This document shows positions 4,436 through 63,830 of a DNA stretch of 64,000 nt, one piece after another; position 1 is the first letter of the stretch; each line of letters starts with the position of its first letter. A program made the translations under genes and the position numbers. The stretch lies in the NCBI GenBank assembly GCA_001938485.1, contig MQRK01232615.1, forward strand, positions 1 through 64,000. The letters are read 5' to 3'. This DNA comes from Girardia tigrina. Lineage: Eukaryota. A model generated the notes under the pieces. That model had not been told where the DNA came from. It did no database searches and was given only the letters and a program-made list of their open reading frames with translations.

Positions 4436-5610
4436 AAAATTATTAATCTAGATTAAATTTACCTGCATTTAAGAATATCGAATAAACGTTCACAAGACTC
4501 AAACGCCGGGTAATTTTTATATAGATTGTAATTGTTTTATATCCTCTCCTTACCTCAATTCTAATTATTTTTTGTTTCCATGTGTGGTTCTTCTGATTTG
4601 TGCTTTTTTAAAATTTTTAATTAATAAAAGGAAAATTAATTGATGAAATATGATTTATTAATAAATGTAATTCACAAAAATATATAAATAATAAAATTTG
4701 AATTGAAATATAATCAAATAAAAATAAAATCTATAAAGAAATTATAAATAGATTACTGTTAATTTAATAAGTAGTATATTTTTATAAATCTATACATAAT
4801 TTAATTATTAGTAGTTAATATAAATATTTTTTACCTTTTATTTTCAAATTAATTAAATAATGTTTGTACGCATTTTGCATGAAAAAAAGCCTTATTTAAA
4901 ATTTTTTTCATATTTTTATAAAATTTTAGGATTATACATATAATTTAATTAGTAGTAATAAATGTAATCGCATGTAATGTAATCGCCAATAAAAGTGGTC
5001 ACTTTGAAAACTTATTTTATTGAATAATAACCCTTTAAAACTTTTTTAAATAAACTTTTTCACTTTTACTTAAAAAACATCTGGCTTTTTTTATAAAATT
5101 TAAAAAAGCACAAGTCAAAAGAACCGCACGTGGAAACAAAAAATAATTAGGATAGAGATTGTAAGTAGCGTTTATGCCACTTTCATTATTATCATATTCT
5201 TGAGCCATGATTTAACACCACAAAAATTTATTTTTAAATAAATATTTTACTTTTTTATGATTTTCTTTTCTTATATAATTTTTAATTTTTAAAATATTTA
5301 GTAAGCAAATTAACATAAAAATATTTTACCCTTTAAATAAAAAAAATAATAAATTATTCAGGTGAGACAAAAATTTAAAATTAACCCCTCATAGAGATAA
5401 TGAGAGGACATGAAACAATCTATATAAAAATTACTGGGCGTTACTTTTGGCCAACCCTGTATATATATGTATATACATTTTTTGTTTTCATAAGTAATAA
5501 TTTTTAAAATTTGTTCTTATTCGGATTCCTCTGAGATAATAACTCATTTACCAAAACTCATTTATATTTGGGATTGATAATTATCTTTTCGAAAATGAAA
5601 AGAAATTTAA

Positions 5611-6249
5611 TTAATAATTTTCAGTCAAATGAAATATTTTTGATGAAAATTCATAAAATCCTTTAATAATAATCTGAATTATTTTTATTATATTTATTGT
5701 ATAGCTAAATGCAAAATTTATATTATTATAGATGTGGTTTGTATAATGACTCTTCAAAATTATATTTTTGAAGATTGCTTTTTTCAAATACGACTCTAAA
5801 ACGTAAAATGGAAGTATATAATATTCTTTCCTAATGTGTATTTGGAAGAAGGCATTTGTTAAAGTCAAAGTCCTCTCCGTGCACATCGATTTTGGAGGGT
5901 CGCTTTGGAGATAATCTGCAGAAAGAAATGTGTTAATGCAACGCTCATTTGATTTGCATGTATCGCGGCCGATATTGTACAGAAACGATGAACAATTCCT
6001 CATCCTGATTACCGGCATCATTTCACTCAATTTTGTGATTTGGTGACCCCGGAAAATTTGCCCATTGACCGCGATGTAAAAGTTACTGAAAAATCTGCTC
6101 TTGAAGAAATTAAGAGGGTTCGTTTTGAAGTGACTGAGACATTTTTCACTTGTCGAGTTTGAATTGTCAGATAAGAATTCATTTTTGAAATGGACGACCT
6201 CTGACACATATAGAACAGAAGGAATGTTTTGAACAATCAAGGCGAACAA
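5611..6249 (-). CDS. Candidate coding exon or gene fragment of unknown function
   Basis: 212-codon stop-free frame with a higher-GC core (~5790-6245) amid AT-rich DNA; no recognised motif; starts at TTG. Confidence 0.3.
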   Translation of the reverse strand: MFALIVQNIPSVLYVSEVVHFKNEFLSDNSNSTSEKCLSHFKTNPLNFFKSRFFSNFYIAVNGQIFRGHQITKLSEMMPVIRMRNCSSFLYNIGRDTCKSNERCINTFLSADYLQSDPPKSMCTERTLTLTNAFFQIHIRKEYYILPFYVLESYLKKAIFKNIILKSHYTNHIYNNINFAFSYTINIIKIIQIIIKGFYEFSSKIFHLTENY

Positions 6250-6428
6250 AAAATATCAAAAAAATCTTTATTTTGTTTTTCAAATACACTTAGCACAAAT
6301 TACTTAATCGCGCCGGTTTTTACACGAAATTTTAATCAACAAAAGAAATAAGAAAATATTGTTCCTCGTAAATTTTTTAGGAAAAGAGTTAATTGTCATA
6401 GAAAAAAATATTTTGAGTTATGAATTCT

Positions 6429-6955
6429 GGTTGCATGACAATTGCGGAAAGACAACTGACTACATAACAATTGCGTTCATAAAAATTTATCACTTAAAAA
6501 ATAAATTATTTTATTATTATTTATTTTATTATTAAATAAACCGTAGCTCTAATTTACAACCTTAACTCTAACCCTAACCTTAAACCGTTACAAATTGAAG
6601 TCAATGAATATAACATTGAGGGGTACAAACTCAAGTATCTGAGGAGATTGGCAAATAATGTAATGAATAATTTTATCAAAACTTTTAATGAAATTAATTT
6701 TATCAATAATTTTCTATAAATGATTTAGGAATCTTTTTTATTATTTTGGATTTTTAGCTAGTTATTTTAAAAATATAATTAACTGTTAATAAAACAAAAT
6801 ATGTGAAATATTGAAATTGTATATAGGTATCATCTTTTCATTCAAAACCCTCCATAAATTAATAATCATTAATAATAATTTAATAATCTTTACACAATCG
6901 TCCCTTTCGCAATTGTTTATGTACGCAATTGTCTTTACGCAATTGTCTGGTCACC
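6429..6955. mobile_element. MULE-like non-autonomous element (MITE) with 9-bp TSD
   Basis: ATGAATTCT duplicated at 6420-6428 and 6956-6964; ~50-bp imperfect TIRs built from ACAATTGCG subrepeats; both ends start GG. Confidence 0.8.
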
Positions 6956-13069: not shown

Positions 13070-13390
13070 TCTAATACCCAACAATATGTTGTTTGTATTT
13101 GGATTCATAGTAACTATAGAGCGTTGTGTATAAACCGGTATCTGTTTACTTTCTGTCAATCCCAATTTCAAGACAACCTTTTTTAATATGTCTATCAAAA
13201 TGTCTAAAAAAGGTAAACAACTATTGTTTTCATATTCGACCCTGAAATTAACATTGGTATGAAGAAAATTCATTAAATTCACTAAAAAGGTTCAACCTAT
13301 TCGTTATTATCAAACATTAAAAAATAAAATCAGCAAAGCATCTTTAAAATTATGGTTTGATGTCTTCATATGTCTATATTTTATCCTAAA
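13070..13390 (-). mobile_element. Penelope-like RT C-terminal remnant (further PLE debris likely at ~11800-12090 and ~12300-12345)
   Basis: NFLHTNVNFRVEYENNSCLPFLDILI is the typical PLE RT (H.NI.FT.E.E....LPFLD) motif. Confidence 0.75.
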
Positions 13391-17428: not shown

Positions 17429-18044
17429 TCTAATTACTTGTCAAATTTCATGAAAAAAATACAATCACAATCAATAAAATTTATTTTGCATATTCAAATA
17501 TTTTACACCACTTTATTTTGTAATTAATTCACTCAAGCAAATATCAACTCCATCCATAAGTTTTTTCAATTTTTCGTGATTTTTTTAATCGACCGTTTTC
17601 TCGAGCACTACAATGACCTTGGAAACATTCTGACAGCTCTTAGGGCCTAAAGTGTGTGACATAGGGATCAGAACAATGAATATCAAAAGAAAATGAAATG
17701 ATTTCTATTTCCATTAGGAGACAGCTCGCTAATCATATTCTGCCTCCACATAACGTAGCATTTATTACTCATCAAAAAGTCACTACATAAAATAGAGAAG
17801 GGTCAACAGAATACATTCTTTTATTGTAGTACTTGCAACCTGAGCCTTTCGTCATGTTAACTATTTGTTTCATTTTCCGTGATTATCCATTTAAATATGC
17901 TAACGCACTGTACAACAATAATTTACATGTGTAATTATTGATATGAAAAACGAAAATTAGATACCTTTAACGATTTCTGTAAATTATTTAATTTTGTATA
18001 AAAGTCGTTTTAACTAGAATTTATATTTGATACAGAATGACCCT

Positions 18045-18438
18045 TGTTAGATGTTTTTGGAACATCTTCCACGCTATCAATATTAAAAGCTGACATCAGA
18101 CTTTCAAATTTTATTTATCTACAAAAAATGTCTAATGTATTTTATTTAAACAAATTTAATCGAAATTAAATTCGTTTATTTTTTTACTTTTGAGGAACTA
18201 TTTATTTCATAAATCTCAAACCGGTATAATAAAAATAAATATAGTATTAATAATCCATTTGACTTTTTATTTAATTTCTGACAATTAAATAATTTCATTT
18301 TTTATTTAAATTTACGAAATTTTATCATAGTTAACATAACTTTATTTAGTTCTTGATTTTTTTTAATTTTAAAATGATACTTTGAATTCAATTATAATTT
18401 CAAAAATTTAAAAAAAATTTCATAAAAAATTCTTAACA
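18045..18438 (-). repeat. 3' LTR of the Gypsy element
   Basis: Direct repeat of 23529-23922; on the minus strand it is preceded by the polypurine tract aagaaaatagggaa. Confidence 0.9.
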
Positions 18439-20055
18439 TTCCCTATTTTCTTTAAAATTTTTGAACTTTTCAACATTTGTGATTATTTTTTTTCTTGTAT
18501 ATATCTTCCCATTTATAACTTCTCTCATGTATTCGCTCTATAATGGTGTATGGTCCCTCATATCTGTTATCCCTTTTATGTCTCACTTCTTTTTTTTACC
18601 CACACCTGATTTCCCACCTTGAACTTGCGTCTTGTTTGTTCCTCTGGGTCTTTAATGTTATCGTCTGAAGCCTGCCTACCATTACTATACCATTTCTGTC
18701 TATCCATTTTCCTATCGAATATCATTTCAGCTAGGCTCCTTCCAATCGTTTTTTGACGTGTCGCATTCAACGTGAATTCCACCTCTGGGAGCATATATGC
18801 CCAACTGGTCTCCTTCCTTTCTTTTAAACGTGCCTGTATACATTCACATATATTACGAAATTGTCGTTCCACCATGCCGTTCGTATTATGGTGGTTCGAA
18901 CTCGAGAACACTAATTGTGTACATTCTTTAATTAATAATTCTTTTATCGCCTGCGATTCGAAAATTTTCCAGCATTTCACATGTATTTCTTTAGGAGTGC
19001 CAAATTTCAATATCCATTTTGTCAATATTGTGTGCATAATCGGATGCTCATCTTGTCGTTTGATTGTTGTCAAAACTATATATTTCTGTAAAAAATATAT
19101 TTACTGAAATGATCAATCATGATCATTATATACCTTTCATTTTTTATTGTCTCCCTCCATGGGCCGCAGATATCAATATATACCTTCTCAAACGCTACCG
19201 ATGAAGTTATTTTGATTGTCACCTCTTTCGTTTTCGAAGTATCTGTTTTGGTTTGTTGACATTTTTTACACACCCAACTACTTCTTCTACCGTTTTGCGT
19301 TCCTCTTCCATCTCGAATTTATCCTTCAAATAATGATAAACTTTTTCTGCTCCTGTGTGACATAGAAGTCTGTGAGTCTGTATGATTAATTCACTTCTTT
19401 TTTCTTTTCGTATCCACTGACGTTGTGCTTCTTTGCATTTGGCTTCTTGTCGTAACCGCTAATAACCACATTTTTAGTCTGTCTGACTTTGCATCTTTAT
19501 GTTGCATTTGACATTAAGTACATGTCTTGCATGTGCTACAAAATAACATGTCTGCATTCCAATGTAATTATCCTTTTCTGTATATAATCTTTATATCTAA
19601 ACTACTAAGGTAATTTATCCATGTTTGGAACTGAGCGGTTATCGGTTTCTTTGTATGAAACATAAAGGTGATGGCTTTATGTTTAAATTTTTTTCAGTTT
19701 AAATCTCTTGCCATACAAATAATGATTAAAATGTTGACAGAAATACTAAATGGCTAAAAATTCCTTCCTCGTTATACAATACCCTTTCTAATGTACCCCC
19801 ATTGAATGCGACCCGTACACGATTACTTGTTCTCGTCCCGTTTCGCCCACCTGTGAAATTACTGCTCCAATATTATCAAAGCTGGCATCTGTTTCCAAAA
19901 TAAACTCTTTATTTAAATCCGGGAATGTCAAAATTGGTGCTGTCACGAGTGCTTTTTTAATTTCTTGAAAAGCTTGCTCACATGAGTCCGTCCTTGTTAA
20001 TTTATTCTTATTTACTCCACATAGTCCTTCTAGTGCCTTTGCTTTTTCTGAGTAG

Positions 20056-23521: not shown

Positions 23522-23528
23522 GCCCCCA
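23522..23528 (-). promoter_or_regulatory. Primer-binding site, tRNA-Pro type (TGGGGGC)
   Basis: Directly follows the terminal CA of the 5' LTR. Confidence 0.65.
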
Positions 23529-23922
23529 TGTTAGATGTTTTTGGAACATCTTCCATGCTATCAATATTAAAAGCTGACATCAGATTTTCAAATTTTATTT
23601 ATATACAAAAAAATGTCTAATACATTTTGTTTAAACAAATTTAATTGAAATTAAATTCGTTTATTTTTTTACTTTTGAGGAAATATTTATTTCATAAATC
23701 TCAAACCGGTATACTAAAAATAAATATAGCATTAATAATCCATTTGACTTTTTTTAATTTCTGACAATTAAATAATTTCATGTTTTTTATATAAATTTAC
23801 GAAATTTTATCATAGTTAACATAACTTTATTTAATTCTTGATTTTTTTTAATTTTAAAATGATACTTTGAATTCAATTATAATTTCAAAAACTTTAAAAC
23901 AATTTCATAAAAAATCCTAACA
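23529..23922 (-). repeat. 5' LTR of the Gypsy element
   Basis: Direct repeat of 18045-18438, followed by PBS and gag. Confidence 0.9.
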
Positions 23923-23942
23923 ATCATAATTACTCATTTTAG

Positions 23943-24556: not shown

Positions 24557-25092
24557 ATTCATACAAGGGACGAGCTCATGCAATGGTCATTTTTGAGTTA
24601 CTACAATAATATATATTTTAAATTAAAACGTAACACACAACATGCATATATCATCAGACATATTTGACGAACCAATATTGGAATTGAACTCAAGATGGAG
24701 ATTAGACATAATTTCCAATTTTTTTTCAATACAAATATCTGTTTTTAAACAAATTTCTGAGGAACATTAATTTCTATTGGCAAATCTTTATAAATAAATT
24801 TAGCATTTATAAATATGAACACGTTAAAATTTTAATTTTAATTTTACAATCTCACAATTTTCAAATTCACAATTTAGTTCCATAGTTTAAAGGATTTTTA
24901 GCTAGGCCTTCAAGTAACGGATGACCAACCACGTTACGATACAATCTCTGGTGACCTTTGCAAACAGTGAACGGCACAGCTTCGGAAATTTTTACCTCGA
25001 GACGAACTCTAGTTTCCCAAGTACACCACTTGGAGTTATGTCCGACTGGCTATTGCACAAGTTATCGAAACAACTGATCCCTGCTTTTCAAT

Positions 25093-25800
25093 GTAGGCCT
25101 CCCATCTCTTTCGAATGATAATGAGTCTCTTGGGTCTTTAGATGGTTGACTTTAACTAAAAAGTCACTAGCAGCCACATAATAGACCTCATATCGGGTCG
25201 CATAGTTTCGGTCTCCGAGATATTTTTGCCTTCTCTGAAAGAAACGACAACCCATGGTTTGTATATTCATGGTTCTTCATACCTTTGACTGTATTTGTGG
25301 ATACCGTACAGCTGCAAAAGGGACATCTGAACTCTCCCCTTGCAGTGATATCTGCAAACATAAAGGTTAGTTGTGTTTCTTTAGTACATATCGCTTCCTC
25401 CATCGCCGTCGAGATGTTGAAGGGTCCGTCACGGATCGAATCTGGTTACCTGGAATATTAAGTTTTCTTTGACTCTTTCTTCTGTGTTACTTATTGTAAT
25501 GGTTTGCACTGGTGTCATTGTCGGTTCTTCAATTTTTTCCGTTTCCTCCAATTTATGATGCTGCTTGAGGTGCCTGGTAAGCCACGCCTTCGTTTTATAT
25601 GACTTTTATACAGGGTACATGAGAATGGTAATTTTTGTTGTTGTATCTCGTTAAGTTGATCAGGGTAAGCGGTAGCGGACATCACATGGTCCCTTTTGAT
25701 GTGTCTGTTCAGCTCCTTTACGACAGACTCCTTGTAGCATCTTTCTGCTGGGCATTGGTGAAGTTTCCCTCTATCGTTGATCAGCTTCGGCACAGTTGCA
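25093..25800 (-). mobile_element. 5'-truncated, divergent copy of the zinc-finger RTE LINE (3' end)
   Basis: CPAERCYKE...ELNRHIKRDH and CPFCSCTVSTNTVKGMKNHEYTNH are homologous to 51551-52195; shares the 3' terminal motif TTCGAAAGAGATGGGAGGCC. Confidence 0.85.
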
Positions 25801-30646: not shown

Positions 30647-31085
30647 TCAAATTATGCATTCGCTTTTATAATTCAATACTTTTAATAAATTGGTTGAGAT
30701 TGTCGCTTGAATATTTAGTTTAGGATTGTGGGTCCTGATTAATAAAGCTTCACATGCAACTCTCTCCCAATAATTTCCAAAATTTGAACACAGAACTTTA
30801 AAATTATTTATCTCAAAACTACTTTTACATTTCTTTCTATGTTCAGCAATATTACTATTGCCATAAGTTCGACCGTGTTCTCTGATTCGTTTGCAGAGAT
30901 GATGAGAAGTCTCTCCATTGTATGTGGCATCACACCCATTACAAGAATATTGATAAACTAAATCCGAACACAGGCAAAACGGAGTAACAGATTTATTGCT
31001 AAACATACTTTCAACTTTGTATGTTTGAGAAACATTCTTATTGTTTTGAAGTGTATGTAAAAAATTAGGAATGAATACAACTCGA
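30647..31085 (-). mobile_element. Penelope-like element GIY-YIG endonuclease fragment
   Basis: LVYQYSCNGCDATYNGETSHHLCKRIREH...IAEH...F..L...R...EALLI...P.LN. Confidence 0.9.
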
Positions 31086-36836: not shown

Positions 36837-37392
36837 CACGGACCAAGAAGTTTTATATGATCGCGAGTCAAAGAGCTATACGAAACCCCACGGCGAAATT
36901 AATGTAAAGGTTCATTTCGGTGAGCTGTGATGTGACCTTGTCCGGTTTTCCCAGACGAGTGCAACATCAACCCGTCTGAAGGTGTTCGCATCTGGGCGGA
37001 GTTTGAGCGATCGTGTAAAGACCCGAAAGATGGTGAACTATGCTTGTGCAGGTTGAAGTCAGAGGAAACTCTGATGGAGGACCGCCGCGGTTCTGACGTG
37101 CAAATCGATCGTCGGACATGAGTATAGGGGCGAAAGATTAATCGAACAATCTAGTAGCTGGTTCCTTCCGAAGTTTCCCTCGGGATAGCTAGCGTTTATG
37201 ATTCCGTAGTTGAACCTGGTAAAGCGAATGATTAGAAGTATTGGGGGCGAAATGCTCTCAACTTATTCTCAAACTTTAAATGGGTTCGAAGTGCGCCTCT
37301 CTTTAATATTTTTGTTGGAGGTGTACATCGAATACAAATGCCTAGTGGGCCATTTTTGGTAAGCAGAACTGGCAATGTGGGATGAACCAAAC
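36837..37392 (+). rRNA. 28S (LSU) rRNA fragment, dispersed pseudogene (~556 bp)
   Basis: Conserved LSU blocks CACGGACCAAG, GACCCGAAAGATGGTGAACTATGC, TCTGACGTGCAAATCGATCG, CTAGTAGCTGGTTCC, GTGGGCCATTTTTGGTAAGCAGAACTGGC, GGGATGAACC; flanks are non-rDNA. Confidence 0.95.
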
Positions 37393-37794
37393 ATGCAACG
37401 TGGCTTTTTGATAAGAATGGTAACAGTTCCGTGAGATGATTGCTTGGTACAATGCGACTCTCTTTGTCGACTCACTCTGTCAGTCGACCGCGTAAGCCCG
37501 ATTTTTTTAGATTTTTTGATTTCGACGATCACCACCCGTAAGGGGAATGTTTTTGAATTTTTGTTATTTTATCACATGATTTCATCTTATTTTGCGATTT
37601 AAAATTTATTTTTTGAACCATACAATACATTTTTTTTCTTTTTTAAATATTGATATAAATGTGATTAAACGCGCACATTCGACAAGGGGGTCCAATTCCA
37701 AAACTCTATCCCCAATACTAACAGGAACAACGCAGGATCCACCCGCCACAGTTCATTTATTACTCTGTTACTTCAGGGGCCAACGCACAACTCC

Positions 37795-44835: not shown

Positions 44836-45290
44836 TTAATTAACTGCTTTAATTATTAATGTCTCACAAGAGACTCTTTCCCAATAATTTTTAAAATTGC
44901 TGCATAAAACTTTTAAATTATTTACTTCAACAGGAGTTTTATAGTTTTTACGAACCCGTTTATATAAATGACGGACTGTTTCTTCAATGTCTGAGGTTTT
45001 GTATAATTTACACTCAAGTTTATAAGCAAGATCAAAGCATAAACTCAAAAACGTTTTCGATTTATTATTGAGCATATTCTGAATATTGTTTTAGATACAA
45101 TTTTAAATTCCATTTCATAATATTAATTGATTTTAACATAGAAGATTTTAGTTTTTCAAACCTTCAAAATAAGGAACAGATAGTGTGTAGCAAAAATTAA
45201 ATTTTTCATTAGTCCATATATCGGGTTTTAAATCATCCTCTTCTTTAATTGTTTTATTTAAATAATTTATCAATTGTTTTTCTAGTTAAT
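44836..45290 (-). mobile_element. Penelope-like remnant (homologous to 62690-63090 and 30647-31006)
   Basis: KVLCSNFKNYWERVSCETLII; nucleotide similarity to 62870-62930. Confidence 0.75.
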
Positions 45291-45702
45291 TTCTCAATTC
45301 TTCTATTATCCATGATAAATCATGGTCCATGAAGCGATAGATCAGAATTAATACGCACCAATAGTTCAGAAATTACCCAAAACGAATGGCATTACAAGTA
45401 TAATTAATAGTATAATAAATTATTCAAAGTTTATTAGCAGCCACTATTAAAGTGATGTTTCTACCTATCACATGTGGAACTACTATCGGAACTTGGAAAA
45501 TTCATTTCATGGAAAATCAATTTTACAAATTTTTATAAGAAAAATAATTACTTTTGCAAACCAAAAAATTATAATTAACTGAAATACCGATAATCTTAAA
45601 ATTTTAAAAATCATAATTTAAAATTCTCAAAAAAAATTATAAATTTGTATTTTACTTGTTTAAAAATAATGAAATAAATAATTCCAAATTAAAATGTGTT
45701 CC

Positions 45703-45912
45703 GCGTTATTATGTCAACAATGTGATTCCTATCATTATTGTGTTACAATAACGCTAAAGAAAAAATTTTAATCTCCAAGAGTAAATTAACGTCAGAAATG
45801 AGTAGCTGTTCTAGTTATTTGTGGATGGCGTACTGTTGGGGGTTATGGTTTTTGTGGTTGCGAGTAATTGCAAGACATTTACACTGCTTGCAGTTTAGTT
45901 TAATCACAAACA
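45703..45912. repeat. 210-bp repeat with an inverted, near-identical copy at 61294-61503
   Basis: Same translated ORF on opposite strands; about 4 substitutions by eye. Confidence 0.9.
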
Positions 45913-46963: not shown

Positions 46964-47324
46964 ATTTGATATTTTCATAAAACTTTTCTCACAAAACAAA
47001 TAAATCATGAAAACTGTCTTACAGCTATTCAGAAATAGATGACTATTTATTAAGACCGATATTTACGAATGGGCCATCAGACCAAAACATCAATAAAAAT
47101 TAAGACAAAATAATTATTTAAGAATGATTTATTAATAATAATTAATTACAATTACTTGTTATTCCGTAATAATAATAATTGAACAAAGTTTTAAAGTAAT
47201 GGAATCCAATAAACTTGAAAAAGTTAGAGGTTACATAATTTGCTTAGAATAAGTAAATTAAAACCATTTTAACTACAAGAGAATTACGAAACCGCTGTAA
47301 AAATTTGACTATAATGGAAAAATA

Positions 47325-47400
47325 GGGGTATAACATCTTTCACCTCCTCGTGGTGTATCCCGGAAACTAGAGTCACCTTCTCTAGGCTAAATGAGTGATG
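47325..47400 (+). ncRNA. HDV-like self-cleaving ribozyme at the LINE 5' end
   Basis: P1 GGGGTAT/GTATCCC, P2 CATCTTTC/GAGTGATG (7 of 8 pairs), P3 ACC/GGT, L3 TCCTCGT, P1.1 CC/GG, P4 CTAGAG/CTCTAG, J4/2 GCTAA; G1 abuts the TSD. Confidence 0.8.
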
Positions 47401-49566
47401 AAGGTTACGGGACTAGCTATTCTGTTCGCGGATTAACTCGTTGCTATTGAAACTCAAACAAGGAGTCTGACAGGACTCGCAGTCAATAATCTCCCGACTG
47501 GTTCCGACGACACGGGGACCAACATCGGAAAACTGAAAATCGGTACGTGGAACGTGCGTGGGCTCAACGACGAAAAGATTGTATCTATTACAGAAGCTCT
47601 GAGAAGAACGAAAACAGAGGCGTGCATCCTAACCGAGACGCACTGTCAGGGAAATGAAACGACCAAATACGACGGCTGGAAAATACTCCACAGTGGCAGT
47701 ATCACTGTGGCACGAAGAGAAAGAGGAGTCGCGCTGATGATATAAGAAAATGATCTGACGAAAATAACCTTCACACCTGTTAATGATCGAATTTTTACTT
47801 GCAGGTACATATGGAAATCTATTACACTTATCGGAGTGTATGCCCCGTCGGACTATGGGTATACACGTGAGGAGAAAGAGGAATTCTACACAGTATTGCA
47901 GGAAGTGATTACAAAAGAACAAAAATTCGCTAAGAATAATAAAATGGAACTGTTAGTTGGAGGAGACTTCAACTGCCGGCTCAAGCGATGCGATGACAAC
48001 AGCTCTGTAGTGGGTCCTTGCGCAAGCGGGAACCGCACTTCTGAGAACGCAGAAATGCTTGTTGACAGGGCAAAATCCTGTGGTTTTTGTGTGGAGAATA
48101 CATTCTTCAGGAAACAAATCAAGCAGAGAACGAGGTGGACTCATCCAGGAACGAAAAGGAGAGAATTGCTCGATCTTTTTCTATCAGAGAAACACCGATG
48201 CAATAGAATGACAAACATCCGAAGTTACCAGAGCTTCGATTGAGGATCGGACCATGACTTAGTGGTTATAACCGCGTTAATTTATGAGGAAAAGAAACGC
48301 CCAAAACGCTTGAGAAACGATAAGAAGCCTCGCAAACAAAAGCTACCGGAAAGTGAAGCAATTGTCAAGAAGAAAGAGGCGATAATAGAATCACTTCCGC
48401 GTCTTACTGTTTCAGGTACTACTACGTGGAAATCCCTTAATCATGTAATCAGAAGCGAGATACAAAGGCTGAGTAGAAAAAGGAAAAGAGCACCAATCAA
48501 CCAGCAGTGGTTGGGTGGGCACCTAGACGAGCTTAGGATGATGATCAGAGAAAAATGGGCAAGACGTTCAGAATTCGTAAAAGACGGAAACGACACAATA
48601 TACTCGAGGTGGAAGTCGAGCAGACTTCTTATTCCGAGAAAGATTCGACAACGGAAACGGAAAAGAGCAGAAACTCTTGGAGAGCAAATTGAAAAGATCC
48701 TTGCAAACGACGGAGAAGGGAAACTGAAAGAACTCATAACAGAGTTACGTGTTCTCTGTAACACATAATCAAAAGAGAACACAATGTGTGCTCTCTCAAC
48801 TCTGATAGGAAATGAAGAACTATCTGCACATTTCAACAACCTCTTTCGAGCTAATTCTCATTTAGACGAAAGAATTGATATCACATGGGAAACACCCAAC
48901 CTGGACACTCTGGATCTCCCCCCACCTTTGAAGAACTAGAAGTGGCTGTGAGGCAGTTGAAGAGCGGTACAGCAGCAAGCTCAGATGAACTTATTCCTAA
49001 AGTATATAGATAGGGAGGTATAAATATCACCTCCCTACTGGAAATATGCTTCAGGAATATATGGGACGGTGTGGAAGAGTTCCCACCAAGTTGGAGAGAG
49101 GCCAAAGTGGTAATTCTCTTCAAAGGGAAAGGATCTCGTAAAGATCTGAATAACTATAGAGATATTTTCCTTCTAGACGTAGGCGGTAAAGTCTTTGCGA
49201 AATTTATTGCTAATCGTAATACTCCGATTGTAGTGTTCACTAAATCGCATCAGCAGTAGCAACCAATTAAGAGTTTTTTGTTAAGTGATATATAATTTAA
49301 TTTTTTGATTTTTAATTTTGAAAAAATTTCTTAATTGGATTTGCGACCCCTGAAATTTTTAAAACTGAAAAATTCAGATGCGCATTTAAAAAATTTTTAA
49401 AACAATTGAAAATTTTTAATTGATAAAAAAAACCATTATCAAAACTTAATTAATTAATCTTTGTAGTGTTTTAATAATACAAATAATGTATCGCGTTTTT
49501 TAAATTTATTTCCTTTATAAATAAATATTCGAAACTAGTTAATTTTTTTCCTCCATCAACACTACA

Positions 49567-50318
49567 ATGAGATCTCAGTACGATGAGGATTTAGAATCCA
49601 ATTCATTTTTTCTCGCCTTCAAAAGCCAACAAAAAGTTATATTTGATAACGCGATTAGAAAAAAATGGATTATCGCAAAACCGTGTTCGGGTTCTTTTGT
49701 TAAAGACAAATACGATGATTTCGATTTCTTGAATCACGTTTTGGTGCCGAATATCGACGAGAGTTTATCCAACAGCGATTCTAATAAAACTCTCGGAAAT
49801 CAGAAGGCTACTGTTTCAACAAGCGCAATTTTAAAACAAGTCGAAATGGACAACTCTCAGTTCTCCGAAGTGCTTGGAGCGGAGAATATTAACACGAATA
49901 AAGTTCATTCAAATCATTCCAATGAGAATTCCATCAGAAATTGTCAAATCTCCATCAACCGACGTTTCCATTCGTCGCGAATTCCGCGAAAAAGTTATCG
50001 TGTTTAACGAACGGCGGTCCGATAGTCGGGATGAAGTTGTTGTCCGATTGCTGCTCGTCGACATCGATCGTTTCTTCCTCCATCAATTACATCACGTCCG
50101 ATTTGTCACAAATGACCGAACCACAATCCTTCATCGTCTGGATCACGGTGCGTGCGGGTGTGGTGGCGACCCTTCGAAAGAACGAACGCCACAAAAATAA
50201 GGTAAGCCTTATCGATAGGCGAACGATTCTCCCCGTTTCACTTTTTAGTACGCGACCACTCAGCTCGTTCCACGAGATCCACGGAACACATACCGGGCAA
50301 GACAAATATGAACAATAA
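49567..50318 (+). pseudogene. ANKRD27: ANKRD27/VARP-like 5' gene fragment inserted in the LINE
   Basis: MRSQYDEDLESNSFFLAF...WIIAKPCSGS...HVLVP resembles the ANKRD27 N-terminus (MALYDEDLLKNPFYLAL...VLVPCKGS...YILIP); frameshifted and truncated. Confidence 0.65.
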
Positions 50319-53292
50319 CACCGATAATTGAAGCCTCTCTTGAGAAATGGCAATTTGGATTCCGGACAGGCAGAGGAACGCAACAAGCTATCAGCATCTT
50401 GGGAAAGCTACAGGAAGAAACAAGATATTAAAATATCCACATTTTTTTAATCTTTATAGATCTGGAGAAAGCATTTGACAGCGTCCCCTGGGAGTATCTC
50501 TGGATCTGTTTAAAGAGACTAGGAATAAGAGGGAGAATGTTTGAAGTCATCAAAGCCTTCCATGAGGGATTTAAAGGTTCAATAGGGGATAAAACCTTCA
50601 ATATGAACAAAGGAATTAGACAAGGTTGTGTTTTAGGTCCGCTCCGATTCAATATTGTCTTCGAAACAGTCCTGAAACCAGTGATATTGAATGGTCTCTC
50701 AGGAGGAGCAAAGATGAGTACTGATGCTGGAAGCTGCCTCGAGATCAACAGACTGGCTTACGCGGACGATATCTGTCTGATAGACACCGATTGGAACAAT
50801 CTTATCAGAAACCTAAATCTACTGAATGACTCATTTGTAGATTTAGGACTAAAGATCAATATCAATAAGACCAATGTTATGAACCTAAACGGAGATACCA
50901 ACTTTCTCACCGCCGGACATCAGCTTGAGACTGGTATTGAGTGGGTATCCAAATTCGTCTATTTGGGTTCCACAATCTCCCAAAATGGAACCGCTGAAGA
51001 TGAATTAAGAGAAAGAATACAAAAGGGTACCAAGGAGATCATGGACCTCAAACCGGTTCTGAGGAGCTCCAAACTCTCATTACGGAACAAGAAGAAGATT
51101 TTCAGCTCTTGCATACTTCCCGTAGTATACTACAGTTGTGAAAGTTGGGGAACAGGTAACAAAACAATCAAGAAGCTTGCTGCTTTCACAATTTGTGTAC
51201 TCGCACAATCATGAAAGTTCAGAAGATTGAGAAGATACAGATGTATACTATCAACATTGAACTGCCGCTTCCCATGGATATCATTACAAGCAGAAGACTT
51301 GTCTATCATAGCAGGTTGGACACCTCTGATACAACAAACATTGTGAGGTGTGTGTGGAGAGCAACAAGGTCAATAGGAAAGAAGATCAGTGGTAGAAAGA
51401 AGCAAGCTCTCTCCGAATGCCTCAGAGTGGATATACAGGGGCTCTTTGGGGATAATGCAGCGTATGAAGACTTCATACACCACATTGTCCACAGAGACCC
51501 CACTATAGAAAGAGAGCAATACATCAACTAATTAATAAGAGAAGGGAAGCATGAACAGAACAAGAGCCGATCTGCCGAAATTACTCAATGAGAGAGATAA
51601 ATTCCTTCAATGTACGATAGAAGGTTGCTTTAAGGAGTTTGCCAAACAAAAGGAGCTTAATAGACATCTCAAGCGGGATCACACAGAATCCATAGTAAGC
51701 ATCCCGCTTGAGCTCCCACAAGATGAAAAACCATTTAAATGTATCAAATTCAGCAAAAGTTACAAAACGAAAGGATGGTTCACGAGGCATCTGCATTAAG
51801 ATCATCGAATAGTAGTGAGAAAGAATATCAACGAACATTCGACAGAATCATCAACGCAATCCAACAGCAAAAGCGACAATCCAAACAGAGACGAAGAACC
51901 CACACTCATCCAAACGACCGGCTTTCAGCCAGCAACAGTCATCCCGACTATTTCAACGGTGGTGGCGCAAACGATTTATCCCGAAGATACATATTTGTCT
52001 TTTAGTATCGCAGATCCAAATGCGAGGGGAAAGCTCAAATGGCCCTTTTGCGGCTGTACCAAGTCCACCAATACAGCCAAAGGGATGCTCAATCATGGTA
52101 CCACAATCCATAACTGGTCGTTTGCAACAGAGAAGCCCAAGAAATTTCGGACACTGAAGCACTCCGTCCCCGTAGGAGGCCTATCGGGGGGGTAGCTAGC
52201 ACTCTTTAGTTTGGGTGGACCCTCTAAAGAGCCTAGTGGCTCAATACTATTCGAAAGAGATGGGAGGCCCACGGAAAAATAAATTATTTGGTCGTGTTGC
52301 AGCTAAAGGTCCACTTTTAACTAAGAAGGAAATTAGGAAACAAGTATCAATTTAAAGCCAACAAGGCTTTATGAAAGCAGAAAAATTGTTTACAGAGAAA
52401 ATAACTGAAATCGTATAACAAATGTTCCACTTGGCGAAAAATGCTTGGATAACGATAAAAGTTAAATTTTGTTTCTAGTTTCGATCGAAAATATTATCAA
52501 TACTGACGAATTTTGGCGAATCTTTAAAGAATGTGCCAAATGATTAACTAAAAGACGTTACAAGTCAATACCTAGTAGACTATTATACGTCAGGCCAAAT
52601 AATATGAACAATTCACTATTGAATATAATAAAGTGTTCTCGTTTTTTGTCAAATTTTATTATTCAAGCGTTAATTTCTTTACCTATAATTATAGAATGAT
52701 TTTTAAACTGTTTACATTTATTTCATTATTAAAACAATTGGTTTGCGTTAATTTGAAACTTTTATCAATTATTATTATTAAAATGAATAATCAATTGCTT
52801 ATGTTTAGACAGAGAACGTTCAGTTCAGTAAACCATAACTGACTGTCACTCATTGGTCGACCTTAACCTAACAGATGAGGACTTTATCCAATTTGTTGAC
52901 CAATAAAATAGCATGTCGAACGATCAAACAATTCATAACTTTACCTTAAGATCCTAACCTTAACAACAACCTTAGAAATGGATTATCGAGTATACTTCTC
53001 AATAACTTTATAAGGTCCAGTTCGAAAAATCATCCTACTTTTGGCCACTGATTAATTTACTTTCAATCAGCTTTACTCCGATTTTATATTAAGAAAAAAT
53101 TAATTTACATATTGTCGTTCTGTGAACTGTATGAACAATAACGATTACAAATAATTGAAGAAAAATTATTAAAATTATAAAATCATAAAGGTAAGTAAAC
53201 GATATACGTATATAAAGTAGTAGTATAATCTCATAATTCATGAACGCAACTGTAGTTGTTGATTGATAATAATAATAAATAAAAAAGTTTTA

Positions 53293-53966: not shown

Positions 53967-54244
53967 AGGAATAAGAAGATAAATTAGAAAATAATTTACA
54001 CTGATCTTAATAATAACGAAATATACATAATATGATTCTGTTTGTGTTAATCGATTAAACAGTATAAATAAAAATATAGTATTAAGCGGTAAAAATTATG
54101 ATAAAGGCAATTATTGATCGTTAACACAATATAAGACTGTGGTGATTCGTAGTGGCAATTAAAAAAATTAACAGTAAAACAACAATAACAACAACACTAA
54201 CTGATTCACTAACCAAACCGCACCCAAATAACACAACACTAGAC

Positions 54245-54890
54245 CATATAACCTACTGGAAGTCATCGGCAAAGTTTTTGCACGAATAATCATAAATAGA
54301 ATGACGCCGGTGATGGAAAAAAGGTTAGACTTTTGGTAGTTTGGTTGTCAGTTGAAAAGAGGTACTAGGCAAGCTATAAATATACTCAGGTAAATACAGG
54401 AAGAAGGTCGATATAAGGACCAGAAATTATTTGTTATATTCATCGATTTGGAAAGGCATTTGATAGTGTCCCATGTGAAGTTCTGTGGACTTGTCTGAAA
54501 AGATTCGGTTTGAAAGACAAGATTCTCTGTCTGATCAAGGAATTCCTTGAGACCATTTTTTGCCTCTGTAGGAGATTGGGAGATTCTCATGAAAAGAGAT
54601 GTCAAGCAGGGATGTGTGATGGAACCTTGTCTTTTTAACTTGGTCTTCGATGAAGTTTTCAAAACGGTAATAATAAAAGGATTCGGGAGAAGAATTACCC
54701 TGATCGACGAACATGGTGACGAATTTCAAGTCAATAGATGTCCTTATGCTGATGATCTATGTATCATCGACTCTGATATTGATCATGTCTGTTAAAACCT
54801 GGATATATTTAGAAGCACATTTTCAAAAATGACTATTTGTACATCTAAGACGAAAGTCATGTGCCTAACTGACGACTCTGGACTGGAATA
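54245..54890 (+). mobile_element. RTE LINE RT fragment (divergent)
   Basis: LLEVIGKVFARII, FIDL..AFDSV, VKQGCVMEPCLFNLVF, YADDLCI. Confidence 0.85.
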
Positions 54891-60634: not shown

Positions 60635-61997
60635 TAAAAAATTAAGAAAAAAATTTTCGATTGTATTAATATTAGACATTATAAAAATGATAATCTAAAA
60701 GTTTAACGCTGGGAAAACACTGGAATTAAGAAGACGGAATCTTTTGATTATAAAAGTAATATGGATAAATATTAATTTAAAAAATTAGTGACAATTAATG
60801 ATAATAATATACAGGTTCAATAACAATAAATAAATGACAAAAATGTTTTTATTCTAAAAGAAACAAATTTGAAAGTTAATAATTTATAGGTAAACTAAAA
60901 TTTAAGAGTAAATTAAGATTTGCCACTTTGATTTCATATCAAAAATCATTTAAAACATCAATCTATTTAATTGGAATTTAGTGAAATTAGAAAAATCTTT
61001 TTATAGTTGGTAAACATCGATAAAGATTGTTCATATTCATTTCGTCCTTGAAATAAACCTTAGAAAATTAGAAGGCATTATATGATATCTACATTTGATG
61101 TCTTTGATTAAGACTTAAGTTTTTAATTTGCAAAATGATATAATTAATATTCAAACATATTTTAGATAAAGTTCAATCGACAAAATTTATATCGATTGTA
61201 TTTTTTCTTCCATCATAAATTAATTGATTAAATTATCATAAAAAATAACTAGTTTATATAAACTCAAGTTGTTATTTGGTTTATAATAACATTTGTTTGT
61301 GATTAAACTAAACTGCAAGCAGTGTAAATGTCTTGCAATTACTCGCAACCACAAAAACCATAACCCCCAACAGTACGCCATCCACAAATAACTAGAACAG
61401 CTACTCATTTCTGACGTTAATTTACTGTTAGAAATTAAAATTTTTTCTTTAGCGTTATTGTAACACAATAATGATAAGAATCACATTGTTGACATAATAA
61501 CGCAAAATCACTTCTATTTGAATTTTTAATTTATATTGTAGAATTAATTATTTAAACAAATTAATTTTAAAAAAATTTTAATGAGAATTTTTTTTTTTTT
61601 TACTTTTTTTAAATCTAATTTCAATAAAATTCTTATTAAATAGATTGATGTTTTTTAATGTGATATAAAAATTTTATAATCTGAATAGCAATTTTGATAT
61701 GAAATCAAAGTGGAAAATCTTAATTTACGCTTAAATTTTAGTTTACCTATAAATTATTAACTTTCAAATCTGTTTCTTGTTTTAGAATAAAAACATTTAT
61801 TTATTGTAATTGAACCAGTATAAATGTTGTCATTCATCATTTGTCACTAATTTTTAAAATTAATATTTATCCATATTACTTTTATAATCAAAAGATGTCT
61901 TCTAAATTCCAGTGTTTTCCCAGCGTTAAACTTTTAGATTATCATTTTTATAATCTCTTTAATATTAATACAATAGTAAAGTGTTTTTTTCTTAATT
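60635..61997. mobile_element. Long-TIR (foldback-like) element: ~360-380-bp imperfect inverted arms (~60635-60992, ~61612-61997)
   Basis: For example gataatctaaaagtttaacgctgggaaaacactggaatt versus aattccagtgttttcccagcgttaaacttttagattatc; the interior holds the 61294-61503 repeat. Confidence 0.7.
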
Positions 61998-62339: not shown

Positions 62340-63090
62340 TTATGAATGTTAATTTCACATTTAGATTTTCTTATGCTCGGTCATATTTTTTTCAATCTCT
62401 TTTTGACCACGTTATAAACTTCCTTTACAGTCTCTCCAATGTATGTGACATAACACCCCTTTCGTTAATATTTATTAACAGTATTTTTTATTATTATTAA
62501 ATTGATATTTAATTCCTAACTGATTGCTTTTAATTTCGCACCTTTAAAGTTTTTAAATTCTTCAGAATAAGGTATAATTAATCAATTTTTAGAACCAAGA
62601 GGAGATACAAAACTTTGATTTTTAGAATTATATATCAAAATTTTCTTAATTTCGGGGTAGTAGATAACTCCAGAAAGATTTTGCGAACCCAAGTATTATG
62701 GTAACATGATTAAAGGGTTGGTGTTTCGTTCTTGGTCCTTGTCTTCAAATTATTCCAAGACTAATTCTTGTTTGAACAATTCGAGAGACTCTTTACACAA
62801 GAATCTCTATTCAAAATCTTTCCTTGACAAATTAACTAGAAAAACATTTCATAAATTTAATAAAGATGGTCTAAATAAAACAACTGAAGAAAAGGATGAT
62901 TTGAAACCCGATATATACGAACTAATGAGAGACTTAAATTAAATCACATTAACTATTCCTTATTCTGAAGGCTTTTAAAATTCAAATCGCCTATTTAAAA
63001 ATAAATTAATATCATGAATTTGAATTTAAAATTGTCTCTAAAACATATAAAATCCAGAATATGTCTAGTAATAAATTGACAAGTTTTTTT
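62340..63090. mobile_element. Two Penelope-like remnants in divergent orientation (GIY-YIG on -, RT thumb/linker on +)
   Basis: CYVTYIGET on minus; MIKGLVFRSWSLSSNY...LHKNLYSKSFLDK on plus. Confidence 0.65.
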
Positions 63091-63419: not shown

Positions 63420-63830
63420 ACATTTCTATTTATTAAAAATGAATGAAATTGAAAGAAAAATAGACCACTAATTTAATACACTTGGAGATTGAAGGTATTT
63501 TGAAGTGTGAGGACATAATGGTCCGGATAAAACGAATTCGGAGATGATGAAGCTAATATTTAAATGCCCGACGGATCCATGTTTTAAGTCCTTTGCAGAA
63601 ATCTAAGAGCAAATCACGCACCTGAGAAGAGATCACTTTGGAGCCGAGACATATATTAGAGCGGTTGCTCCTCCAGCGGCACAATAGAAAAGACTTAAAG
63701 ATAGAAAAAAGGAAAACATGAATGCCAGCACTGTTCAAAAGAGTACACATTCGCAGGATGGATGAAGATCCACACTCAGAAGAACCACAAAGAGCTACAA
63801 AACCAGAACAGAGAATGAAGAACTTGCGAA
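63420..63830 (+). mobile_element. Third, divergent zinc-finger RTE C-terminal fragment
   Basis: FKCPTDPCFKSFAEI*EQITHLRRDH and HECQHCSKEYTFAGWMKIHTQKNH. Confidence 0.75.

Follow-up and report, generated by a model that had tools for sequence, protein, structure and literature searches.

The Element and Its Relatives in the Window

The 64-kb stretch of DNA analyzed here, hereafter called the window, contains an APE-RT LINE at positions 47325-52272, the first and last bases of which agree with the start and end of other copies. It is flanked by a 9-bp target-site duplication (TSD), GGAAAAATA, for which the window holds two exact matches, at 47316 and 52273. The features of this copy, and of its relatives in the window, are as follows:

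47316..47324, forward strand: 5' TSD of 9 bp, its start fixed by other copies
47325..47398, forward strand: predicted HDV-like ribozyme fold from the first base of the element (Rfam RF02682 and helix descriptor)
47533..48270, forward strand: APE endonuclease domain with approximate bounds, interrupted by stop codons (weak in Pfam; intact relatives pass the Pfam cut-offs)
48918..49228, forward strand: N-terminal part of the RT
49229..50314 (approximate), no strand assigned: foreign insertion of about 1.09 kb from outside the family, missing from other copies
50315..51530, forward strand: RT core with thumb and post-thumb region, containing a stop as well as frameshifts (RVT_1, E 2.4e-23)
51611..51682, forward strand: C2H2 finger 1, intact, helix type E/T-x-K-E-x-x-R
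51740..51805, forward strand: C2H2 finger 2, second Cys lost, with a stop, helix type T-x-G-W-x-x-R
52040..52111, forward strand: C2H2 finger 3, lacking its first Cys; a conserved W-S and a basic tail come after it
52217..52272, forward strand: conserved short 3' terminus that has neither poly(A) nor a tandem tail and is predicted to form a branched stem-loop
52273..52281, forward strand: 3' TSD, matching the 5' TSD
25093..25800, reverse strand: 5'-truncated copy of a sister subfamily; the 5' end of another element, headed by a ribozyme, follows directly
54232..54879, forward strand: remnant of the RT of a three-finger subfamily that is less closely related, absent from the original prediction
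63420..63830, forward strand: decayed remnant with fingers 1 and 2

The description of the element as complete and TSD-bounded, made earlier from the sequence alone, holds for its two ends and the 9-bp duplication but not for its condition, the copy being interrupted by many stops, frameshifts and the 1.09-kb insertion. In the copy alignment, this insertion is present in none of the other copies that span its point. Judging from these lesions, the window copy is dead. Pfam recovers its APE only weakly and in two pieces (E 0.034 and 0.024); RVT_1 is found as well (E 2.4e-23), as is finger 1 (E 4.8e-05). A fold search returned RT likeness only, L1 ORF2p and R2 being nearest. Copies stop abruptly at a fixed base that is followed by the TSD, without a 3' tail of short tandem repeats, and subfamilies differ very little in their 3' RNA end; the stem-loop drawn for it is an unproven prediction, with compensatory change in 0 of 17 pairs.

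The 5' HDV-like ribozyme of the original prediction is recovered as a predicted fold that begins at base 1 and comprises a nested double pseudoknot with the catalytic C. The helix descriptor finds all of its parts, namely P1 (7/7), P2 (6/7), P3, P1.1 (2/2), P4 and the C of J4/2, and Rfam RF02682 scores 33.1 bits (E 0.026) on 47325-47398, below the gathering score of 44. When the window family is compared with its L443/L180 sister family, P2, P3 and P1.1 are altered on both sides, in a compensatory manner. Applied to 11 stretches, the descriptor failed on 4 and gave a misfit in 2.

The C-Terminal Zinc Fingers

The order APE, RT and then three C2H2 fingers is confirmed, with the fingers at the coordinates given above. 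That the finger region is in frame with the RT is evident from L011, which has a 592-codon stop-free frame running from the RT through the three fingers; among gap-free copies one frame is kept in 5 of 15, the remaining 10 shifting at scattered places. These in-frame natural copies rule out a location of the fingers outside the ORF. Cysteines lost in the window copy had been reported as intact in two relatives, of which the copy at 25093-25800 does carry all three fingers but lacks the second Cys of finger 2, whereas in the remnant at 63420-63830 only the first two fingers are recognizable, and stops occur. The broader claim, that the tail is an old and conserved family trait, is supported; it is part of the ORF and marks a distinct lineage.

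In the lineage alignment, identity is 38-47% in the fingers (a value inflated because the rows were retrieved with a finger-bearing query), 9-13% in the linkers and 34% in the RT, and the helix residues are conserved. The linkers measure 19 and 78 residues and have low confidence in the structure model; the fingers do not form a canonical tandem array, to which linkers of this length are ill-suited, a feature that counts against DNA reading by the fingers. The protein homologue search returned no longer proteins homologous to the finger region and, for the alignment, three uninformative matches; generic C2H2 clusters were all that an Atlas search with this tail produced. The original view of RTE tails as bearing at most one finger is overstated, since multi-finger tails are present in other RTE-like branches as well. 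The three-finger tail alone was rejected as the novelty.

Phylogenetic Position of the Lineage

The lineage has a single ORF in which APE precedes RT, as seen in the 1241-codon frame of L466 and in the proteins P0005 and P0063, where Pfam detects both domains. APE starts about 110-210 bases past the element start, and full length is about 3.9 kb. No separate ORF1 was found upstream of the APE-RT ORF, as would be typical of R1 and Tx1 elements, nor was a gag-like ORF1 seen; Pfam finds no RNase H domain in P0001, P0005, P0027, P0063 or P0129. The combination of C-terminal restriction-like endonuclease and N-terminal fingers is likewise absent, the proteins having an N-terminal APE and C-terminal fingers only.

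In an unrooted RT tree built without named Repbase references, the finger lineage forms a separate branch (SH-aLRT 91), and its nearest non-finger matches are RTE-like by their motifs and by DUF6451. The proposal of an undescribed RTE lineage is supported as far as a distinct lineage is concerned, membership of RTE itself, as opposed to RTEX, RTETP, Proto2 and Ingi/Vingi, being putative. The fingers mark a deep RTE-like lineage, in which a G-rich upstream box and exact sites are found instead of the dispersed insertion with T-stretch signature of RTE elements. Our literature search met neither a finger-tailed or rDNA-specific RTE lineage nor a Penelope-targeting LINE, with Repbase, Dfam, subscription journals and supplements, which may hold such families, lying outside its scope; the lineage is apparently unnamed. 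Bacterial MAG labels on two relative clusters are probably contamination, and viral contigs contained neither lineage relatives nor 28S-site matches.

Insertion at a Fixed Base of the 28S rRNA Gene

The alignment of insertion flanks, proposed originally as a check for target bias, uncovered a strong one, directed to a 28S site, to Penelope elements and to a shared upstream motif, none of which the original prediction mentions. The downstream half of the 28S site has 30 matches in the genome, 29 with foreign DNA at the same base and 1 empty, a ratio that gives no occupancy figure because intact rDNA has probably collapsed in the assembly. Lineage proteins were matched in 10 of the 29 occupied junctions, some of them in tandem arrays, and 13 groups of 3' ends have the junction in common. 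One such locus, L462, is a 28S gene by Rfam on its two sides (E 3e-64 and 9e-55) and carries five units at the site with a 9-bp duplication between them, one unit being a full-length finger LINE; in L466, the APE-RT-three-finger frame joined at the 28S site is unbroken. The site, which is also borne by a 216-bp repeat in the genome, maps to about 2818 in the Rfam LSU model, presumably not the R2 site.

This 28S base is also where L253 and L256 end, two distant relatives from metagenomes that are 25% identical to the query, and rDNA flanks were present in only 3 of the 8 metagenomic finger-bearing loci examined, most others being too short to tell. A third relative, L237, has finger helices of the same type and adjoins a different 28S position, with no GTGT box there in the Rfam consensus as read. 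The window's own subfamily was not seen at 28S, the nine matching ends belonging to sisters with 72-78% identity, and subfamily C had Penelope ends in 0 of 26 sampled yet is present at the 28S site. The missing own subfamily, the other position of L237 and the lack of Penelope ends in subfamily C all count against the targeting proposed below.

Insertion in Penelope Elements and a Common Upstream Motif

Exact 3' ends fall inside the YIG codons of Penelope endonucleases in 181 of 1606 cases, against about 0.02 expected from site frequency and base composition, and in 19 of 99 cases in a contig-order sample. Forty-two of 180 flanks match the Penelope reference, all in sense orientation and 40 at offset 0. 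The copies at this site differ in 5' ends, TSD lengths, subfamilies and length (about 280 to 3900 bases), and are spread over more than one Penelope family. Penelope-like elements are described as an RT followed by a GIY-YIG nuclease with a CCHH motif (PMC8557442), and L389 has this organization: its frame contains RVT_1 (E 6.6e-08) and a CxxC between GIY-like and YIG motifs, and its Atlas matches (0.96-0.97) are to clusters of RVT_1/HTH_animal type, in some of which GIY-YIG is present at 21-28%; Pfam GIY-YIG has no match on the frame. The insertions fall in the conserved Cys-x3-Tyr codons, the commonest look-alike. We rejected Penelope as the primary target, since 2175 of 7258 strict motif sites are Penelope and about a fifth of insertions is therefore explained without adaptation to it. 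At both the 28S and the Penelope sites, insertion is sequence-specific and the target multicopy, a trait shared with R1 and Tx1 elements.

Sites for the TSD set were filtered by requiring at least three matches starting at the junction and none spanning it, with the loss of some true Penelope cases. The 32 non-Penelope insertions share the upstream motif RGTGT...TAY, with G at -16 in 22 and G at -14 in 22 (p about 1e-12), T at -3 in 29 and an exact GTG in 16 versus 0.2 expected; downstream, these 32 sites show no bias. A matrix derived from them alone scores 14.8 at the 28S site and 15.3 at Penelope, values that no 17-mer of the window reaches. With -7.3, the insertion site of the window copy itself does not rise above background, and in leave-one-out 11 of the 32 scattered sites fail the 99th percentile.

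Proposed Mechanism and Alternative Explanations

The reading we favor, with a probability of roughly 60%, is that a single-ORF APE-RT LINE lineage targets one 28S base and its look-alikes, its C-terminal fingers likely reading GTGT about 14 bases upstream. The 28S site is probably the ancestral target, and because both 28S and Penelope match the shared motif best, the rDNA-targeting lineage has likely spilled onto look-alike sites; the window's subfamily appears to be a relaxed one that multiplied at such sites. Of the original idea of a tail dedicated to target selection, the link between lineage and target comes from the flanks, and the part of the fingers in reading the upstream motif and choosing the site is what we infer.

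Transcription would come from outside the element, by Pol I in rDNA and from Penelope or host transcripts elsewhere, the HDV-like ribozyme then freeing the 5' end of the transcript. The protein would bind the structured, tail-less 3' end, and fingers placed on RGTGT at -17 to -13 would position APE for a bottom-strand nick at the T-A step of TA(C/T). The last one or two RNA bases would pair with the primer, and TPRT would produce a TSD of about 9-13 bp. Insertion would leave the upstream box in place, so that further elements, short ORF-less partners among them, could stack at the same base.

The same sites could be chosen by APE, together with RT or thumb surfaces, in the manner of R1 and Tx1 elements, leaving the fingers as a sequence-independent RNA-binding chaperone. 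Such a role has a precedent in L1Tc, whose two C-terminal C2H2 fingers are reported to bind nucleic acids without sequence preference and to act as a chaperone (PMC5814959), and LINE insertion sites are described as set primarily by EN specificity (PMC6007223). The long linkers and basic tail would suit it, as would the need of the highly conserved 3' RNA end for a binder and the recurrence of the same helix types in L237, which adjoins another site. We nevertheless consider this division of labor less likely, because the most informative bases lie 12-15 bases off the inferred nick, beyond a low-information gap, which suggests a separate module. Furthermore, fingers 1 and 2 both carry Arg at position 6 of the helix, a residue that the usual zinc-finger code associates with recognition of G.

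Far less probable is guidance by RNA, in which read-through transcripts carrying downstream 28S or Penelope sequence would pair with the primer strand and so home back: the bias of the scattered sites is strongly upstream rather than downstream, the ribozyme would remove upstream sequence, and L002 inserted right behind a Penelope upstream box though another element lies downstream. In favor of RNA guidance are the absence of a poly(A) tail, the agreement of junction bases with the target in 7 of the 16 cases that have a target end other than AC, and the many 5' ends that begin with GGGAT, which also occurs within the 28S duplication. It may still add precision at 28S and Penelope. Finally, the recurrence of some non-Penelope flanks, reflecting segment duplication in the assembly, and the 216-bp repeat with the 28S site could suggest that composites (the LINE inside a Penelope or rDNA piece) were amplified as units instead of being targeted repeatedly. 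We rejected this explanation, to which we attach hardly any weight, on the variation of Penelope-site copies in length, TSD, subfamily and Penelope family, on the 13 groups of 3' ends at one 28S junction, on the presence of the motif at unrelated sites and on a junction common to other organisms.

Comparison with Known Systems

Targeting of a 28S base and its look-alikes by an APE-RT LINE has close parallels in the R1 and Tx1 clades, which share the exact target in a multicopy gene and tandem stacking. R1 is APE-type and 28S-specific, Anopheles RT1 and RT2 belong to its clade, and Tx1L and Tx2L resemble the present lineage in targeting another transposon. The lineage differs from both clades in its one ORF, its RT nearest to RTE-like proteins and its C2H2 tail. 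R2 is similar in targeting 28S with a single ORF and zinc fingers, in releasing its RNA from a co-transcript by a 5' HDV-like ribozyme and in having short ORF-less partners, as reported (PMC6765202, PMC13708176). It has, however, N-terminal fingers/Myb and a C-terminal RLE, whereas here APE is N-terminal, the fingers are C-terminal and the site is different.

The pairing of ribozyme and C-terminal fingers, seen originally as distinctive, is present but not new, for the L1Tc/ingi elements of trypanosomes are described as single-ORF APE-RT elements with both (PMC5814959); L1Tc differs in its RNase H, its two fingers, its poly(A) tail and its dispersed insertion, and five proteins of our lineage gave no RNase H match in Pfam. 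Members of the RTE clade are comparable as short, single-ORF APE-RT elements with RT and thumb motifs, a 5' ribozyme already known in RTE (PMC6765202) and an upstream signature, reported as a T stretch, about one turn from the cut (PMC6007223). RTE-2_OV of Octopus carries one C2H2 finger, called rare in RTE (PMC9115989). Against these, the lineage stands apart by its separate RT branch, by fingers that number two to four and carry signatures of their own, by the lack of a microsatellite tail and by an upstream box rich in G together with an exact target in rDNA.

Site-specific APE LINEs are said to fall only in the Tx1 and R1 clades (PMC6007223, PMC4640811). We give even odds to the present elements being a third such lineage, ancient, widespread and RTE-related, with a C-terminal finger reader for 28S that is separate from the nuclease, a guild of autonomous and ORF-less elements stacked at the 28S base and one branch shifted onto the conserved nuclease codons of Penelopes, which it breaks by the hundred. 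If an exact 28S target belongs to an RTE-like lineage, specificity would have arisen there independently, and its strict and relaxed subfamilies in one genome a natural series for the loss or shift of specificity; the candidate reader module, being separate from the nuclease, lends itself directly to deletion and swap tests. Development of both RTE and R2 proteins is reported to be under way for RNA-only gene insertion (PMC13708176), and a compact single-ORF element of about 1240 residues with a conserved rDNA target and a natural unbroken frame, as in L466, joins the traits of RTE and R2.

Structure and state of the window element

The LINE copy on which this analysis centers lies in a window of 31% G+C, together with repeat pairs that probably belong to other transposons.

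Features of the window element and its surroundings
47316 and 52273: the 9-mer GGAAAAATA, found twice in the window
47325-52272 (+): LINE copy with APE, RT, and C-terminal C2H2 fingers
47325-47398: HDV-type ribozyme match
about 49229-50314: 1.09 kb of foreign DNA inserted within the RT region, flanked on each side by a diverged ~11-base duplication and with TG...CA-like ends
~51611-51682, ~51740-51805, and ~52040-52111: the three fingers
~24900-25092 (-): decayed 5' end, headed by a ribozyme, of a second element that directly follows a sister-family remnant; the two form a tandem pair
18041-18441 and 23525-23925: direct repeat pair (400 bp, 94%)
45620-45912, 60640-60944, and 61294-61997: several inverted repeat pairs of ~300 bp

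Both termini of the element can be placed, since other copies begin at the equivalent of base 47325 and stop at that of base 52272; the 9-bp target site duplication (TSD) of the original prediction thus holds, and the three fingers lie where it had located them. Its description of the element as complete is right with respect to the two ends, but the copy is dead and carries an insertion that is absent from other copies (family length ~3.9 kb), the 154-codon frame of which gave no Pfam match above the cut-off. The Rfam match to the HDV-type ribozyme reaches 33.1 bits (E 0.026; gathering score 44), and P1, P2, P3, P1.1, and P4 plus the C of J4/2 are recognized by a helix descriptor; in a sister family, P2, P3, and P1.1 are each altered on both sides of the helix.

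The finger tail in the ORF and in the lineage

The fingers are part of the ORF and of an old lineage. One genomic locus (L011) has 592 stop-free codons running from RT through finger 3, and a single frame is retained in 5 of 15 gap-free copies, the remaining ones shifting at scattered places. The tail is carried by at least four subfamilies of the Girardia tigrina assembly (1.43 Gb), and the same finger signatures recur in ~30 of the 150 matches listed in a protein search of 1.84 billion representatives, in agreement with the earlier view of an old, conserved trait. Proteins with these signatures form one side of a branch in RT-plus-thumb trees obtained with FastTree (165 rows, support 90) and IQ-TREE quick (70 chosen rows, SH-aLRT 91), where the group labels were set in part once the first tree had been built and the finger group includes two rows that lack fingers. 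The lineage is termed RTE-like here, a label that we take from its nearest neighbors and motifs, the trees being free of named references. In the remaining RTE-like branches, finger number varies from zero or one to several, and the finger types differ from those of this lineage. (Tails of at least three C2H2 fingers with different signatures occur in the RTE-like loci L239, L240, and L261 and proteins P0051, P0110, and P0112.) With 38-47% identity, a figure biased by the finger-bearing query, the fingers are more conserved than the linkers (9-13%) and roughly on a par with RT (34%). In an AlphaFold model (mean pLDDT 73), each of the three fingers folds as a small unit of its own, and the linkers joining them are of low confidence.

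Insertion at one base of 28S rDNA

Among 80 metagenomic loci, eight finger-bearing ones were examined, and in two of these (L253 and L256, the latter with a flank of 18 bases only) the element passes straight into 28S rRNA, at one and the same base. In the G. tigrina assembly, the downstream half of this site has 30 matches, one empty and 29 with other DNA joined at that base; lineage proteins were matched in 10 of the 29, the ends fall into 13 groups, and of these cases one resembles an rDNA rearrangement and another stays without assignment. Of 41 upstream-half sites, 30 were followed: one is empty, three are cut short by a contig end, 10 lie in a 215-bp repeat, and 16 continue into a duplication-like stretch plus foreign sequence. 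Intact rDNA is probably under-assembled here. Locus L462 is a 28S gene interrupted by five units, every one of them preceded by an identical 9-bp duplication; among the five is a full-length finger LINE with a ribozyme similar to that of the window. Another locus, L466, carries an uninterrupted frame of 1241 codons at the 28S site. On the opposing side, the nine 28S ends that share the window's 3' type come from sister subfamilies, none from the window's own.

Stacked at the same base are elements that are short or lack an ORF, several of them with an HDV-like 5' end (L395, L396, L400, L401, L405, L407, L414, L416, L418, and L424; L462 at 295-572, 4442-4865, and 4866-6532), and by analogy with R2 SIDEs they are candidate non-autonomous partners. 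The repeat noted above, with units of ~215 bp, contains the 28S target site and duplication in an AT-rich setting (L427, L428, L433, L438, L446, L447, and L452). A two-finger relative, L237, adjoins 28S rRNA at 6401-6577 (E 8e-05); the join lies ~130 bases farther upstream than the main site and may reflect a target change within rDNA. The first strand of P1 opens with GGGAT in many families (L462 at 573, L443 at 1517, the window at 47325); this string is also present inside the 28S duplication, and in the window family it may be a relic of an rDNA past. The window itself contains at 36852-37451 a eukaryotic LSU rRNA gene fragment (Rfam 420 bits, model positions 675-1446), outside the target region of the lineage and probably a dispersed rDNA piece.

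A second hot spot and a common upstream motif

The flanks common to many copies encode the nuclease of a Penelope-like element, identified by the CCHH definition of PMC8557442; within its YIG motif, the junction separates the Tyr codon from the Ile codon. The I/V-G-E-T codon pattern follows directly after 181 of 1606 exact 3' ends, against ~0.02 expected from the 18,244 sites of the empty type that 2.86 billion strand positions contain. In a sample of the 100 earliest places in contig order, 19 of the 99 read end at this site. In a set of 180 flanks that includes loci chosen for the Penelope site, and hence gives precision rather than frequency, the Penelope reference is matched by 42, without exception in sense orientation, and 40 of these lie at offset 0. 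Copies inserted at the Penelope site vary in length, TSD, and subfamily and therefore stem from independent events. (Decayed Penelope-like pieces lie in the window at 30716-31057, 44839-45072, 62667-63008, and 13092-13285, by tblastn with the protein of L389, a Penelope-like frame.)

Aligning insertion flanks, a check proposed with the original prediction, thus uncovers strong target bias at the 28S base and the Penelope YIG, and also further upstream. Among 32 filtered non-Penelope insertions, the recurring bases are G at -16 and at -14 (22 sites for either position, p ~1e-12 each), T at -3 (29 sites), A at -2 (25), and C/T at -1 (28); the search pattern partly biases -2 and -1 and leaves -16 and -14 unaffected, and no downstream bias stands out in this set. 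Upstream of the junction seen in L253, the motif recurs with this spacing in the Rfam consensus. With a matrix from the 32 scattered sites only, the 28S site scores 14.8 and the Penelope site 15.3, both above every 17-mer of the window; as a point against, the window copy's own insertion site scores -7.3. Gly/Lys-Cys-x3-Tyr codons of several Penelope families produce the motif at this spacing, and Penelope accounts for 2175 of 7258 strict motif sites, so that the hot spot is explicable without adaptation to Penelope.

A possible mechanism

For targets with an ending other than AC, the junction bases agree with the target in 7 of 16 cases, pointing to a nick one or two bases further upstream, at a T-A step. 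The 28S site would be ancestral: it recurs in relatives of 25% identity, whereas subfamily C shows no use of Penelope (0 of 26 sampled ends). Beyond the observed junctions, motif, frame, and ribozyme fold, the model would involve co-transcription and cleavage by the ribozyme, with the fingers reading the upstream box (RGTGT at -17 to -13, then TAY). This role of the fingers receives about 0.6 of the weight when set against the alternative that APE/RT reads the target and the fingers act as a chaperone. The window element is real, is a variant of the site-specific LINE, and is more interesting than originally proposed.

Relation to known systems

Our literature searches, with Repbase, Dfam, and the Anopheles RT1/RT2 papers outside their reach, found no description of the lineage. 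Tx1 and R1 are the only site-specific APE clades named in PMC6007223 and PMC4640811, and even one C2H2 finger is called rare in RTE (PMC9115989). The lineage departs in a defining trait from each family compared. It resembles R1 and R2 jointly in the exact rDNA site, stacking, ribozyme, and short partners, and L1Tc in its build of C-terminal fingers plus ribozyme, here on an RTE-like RT.
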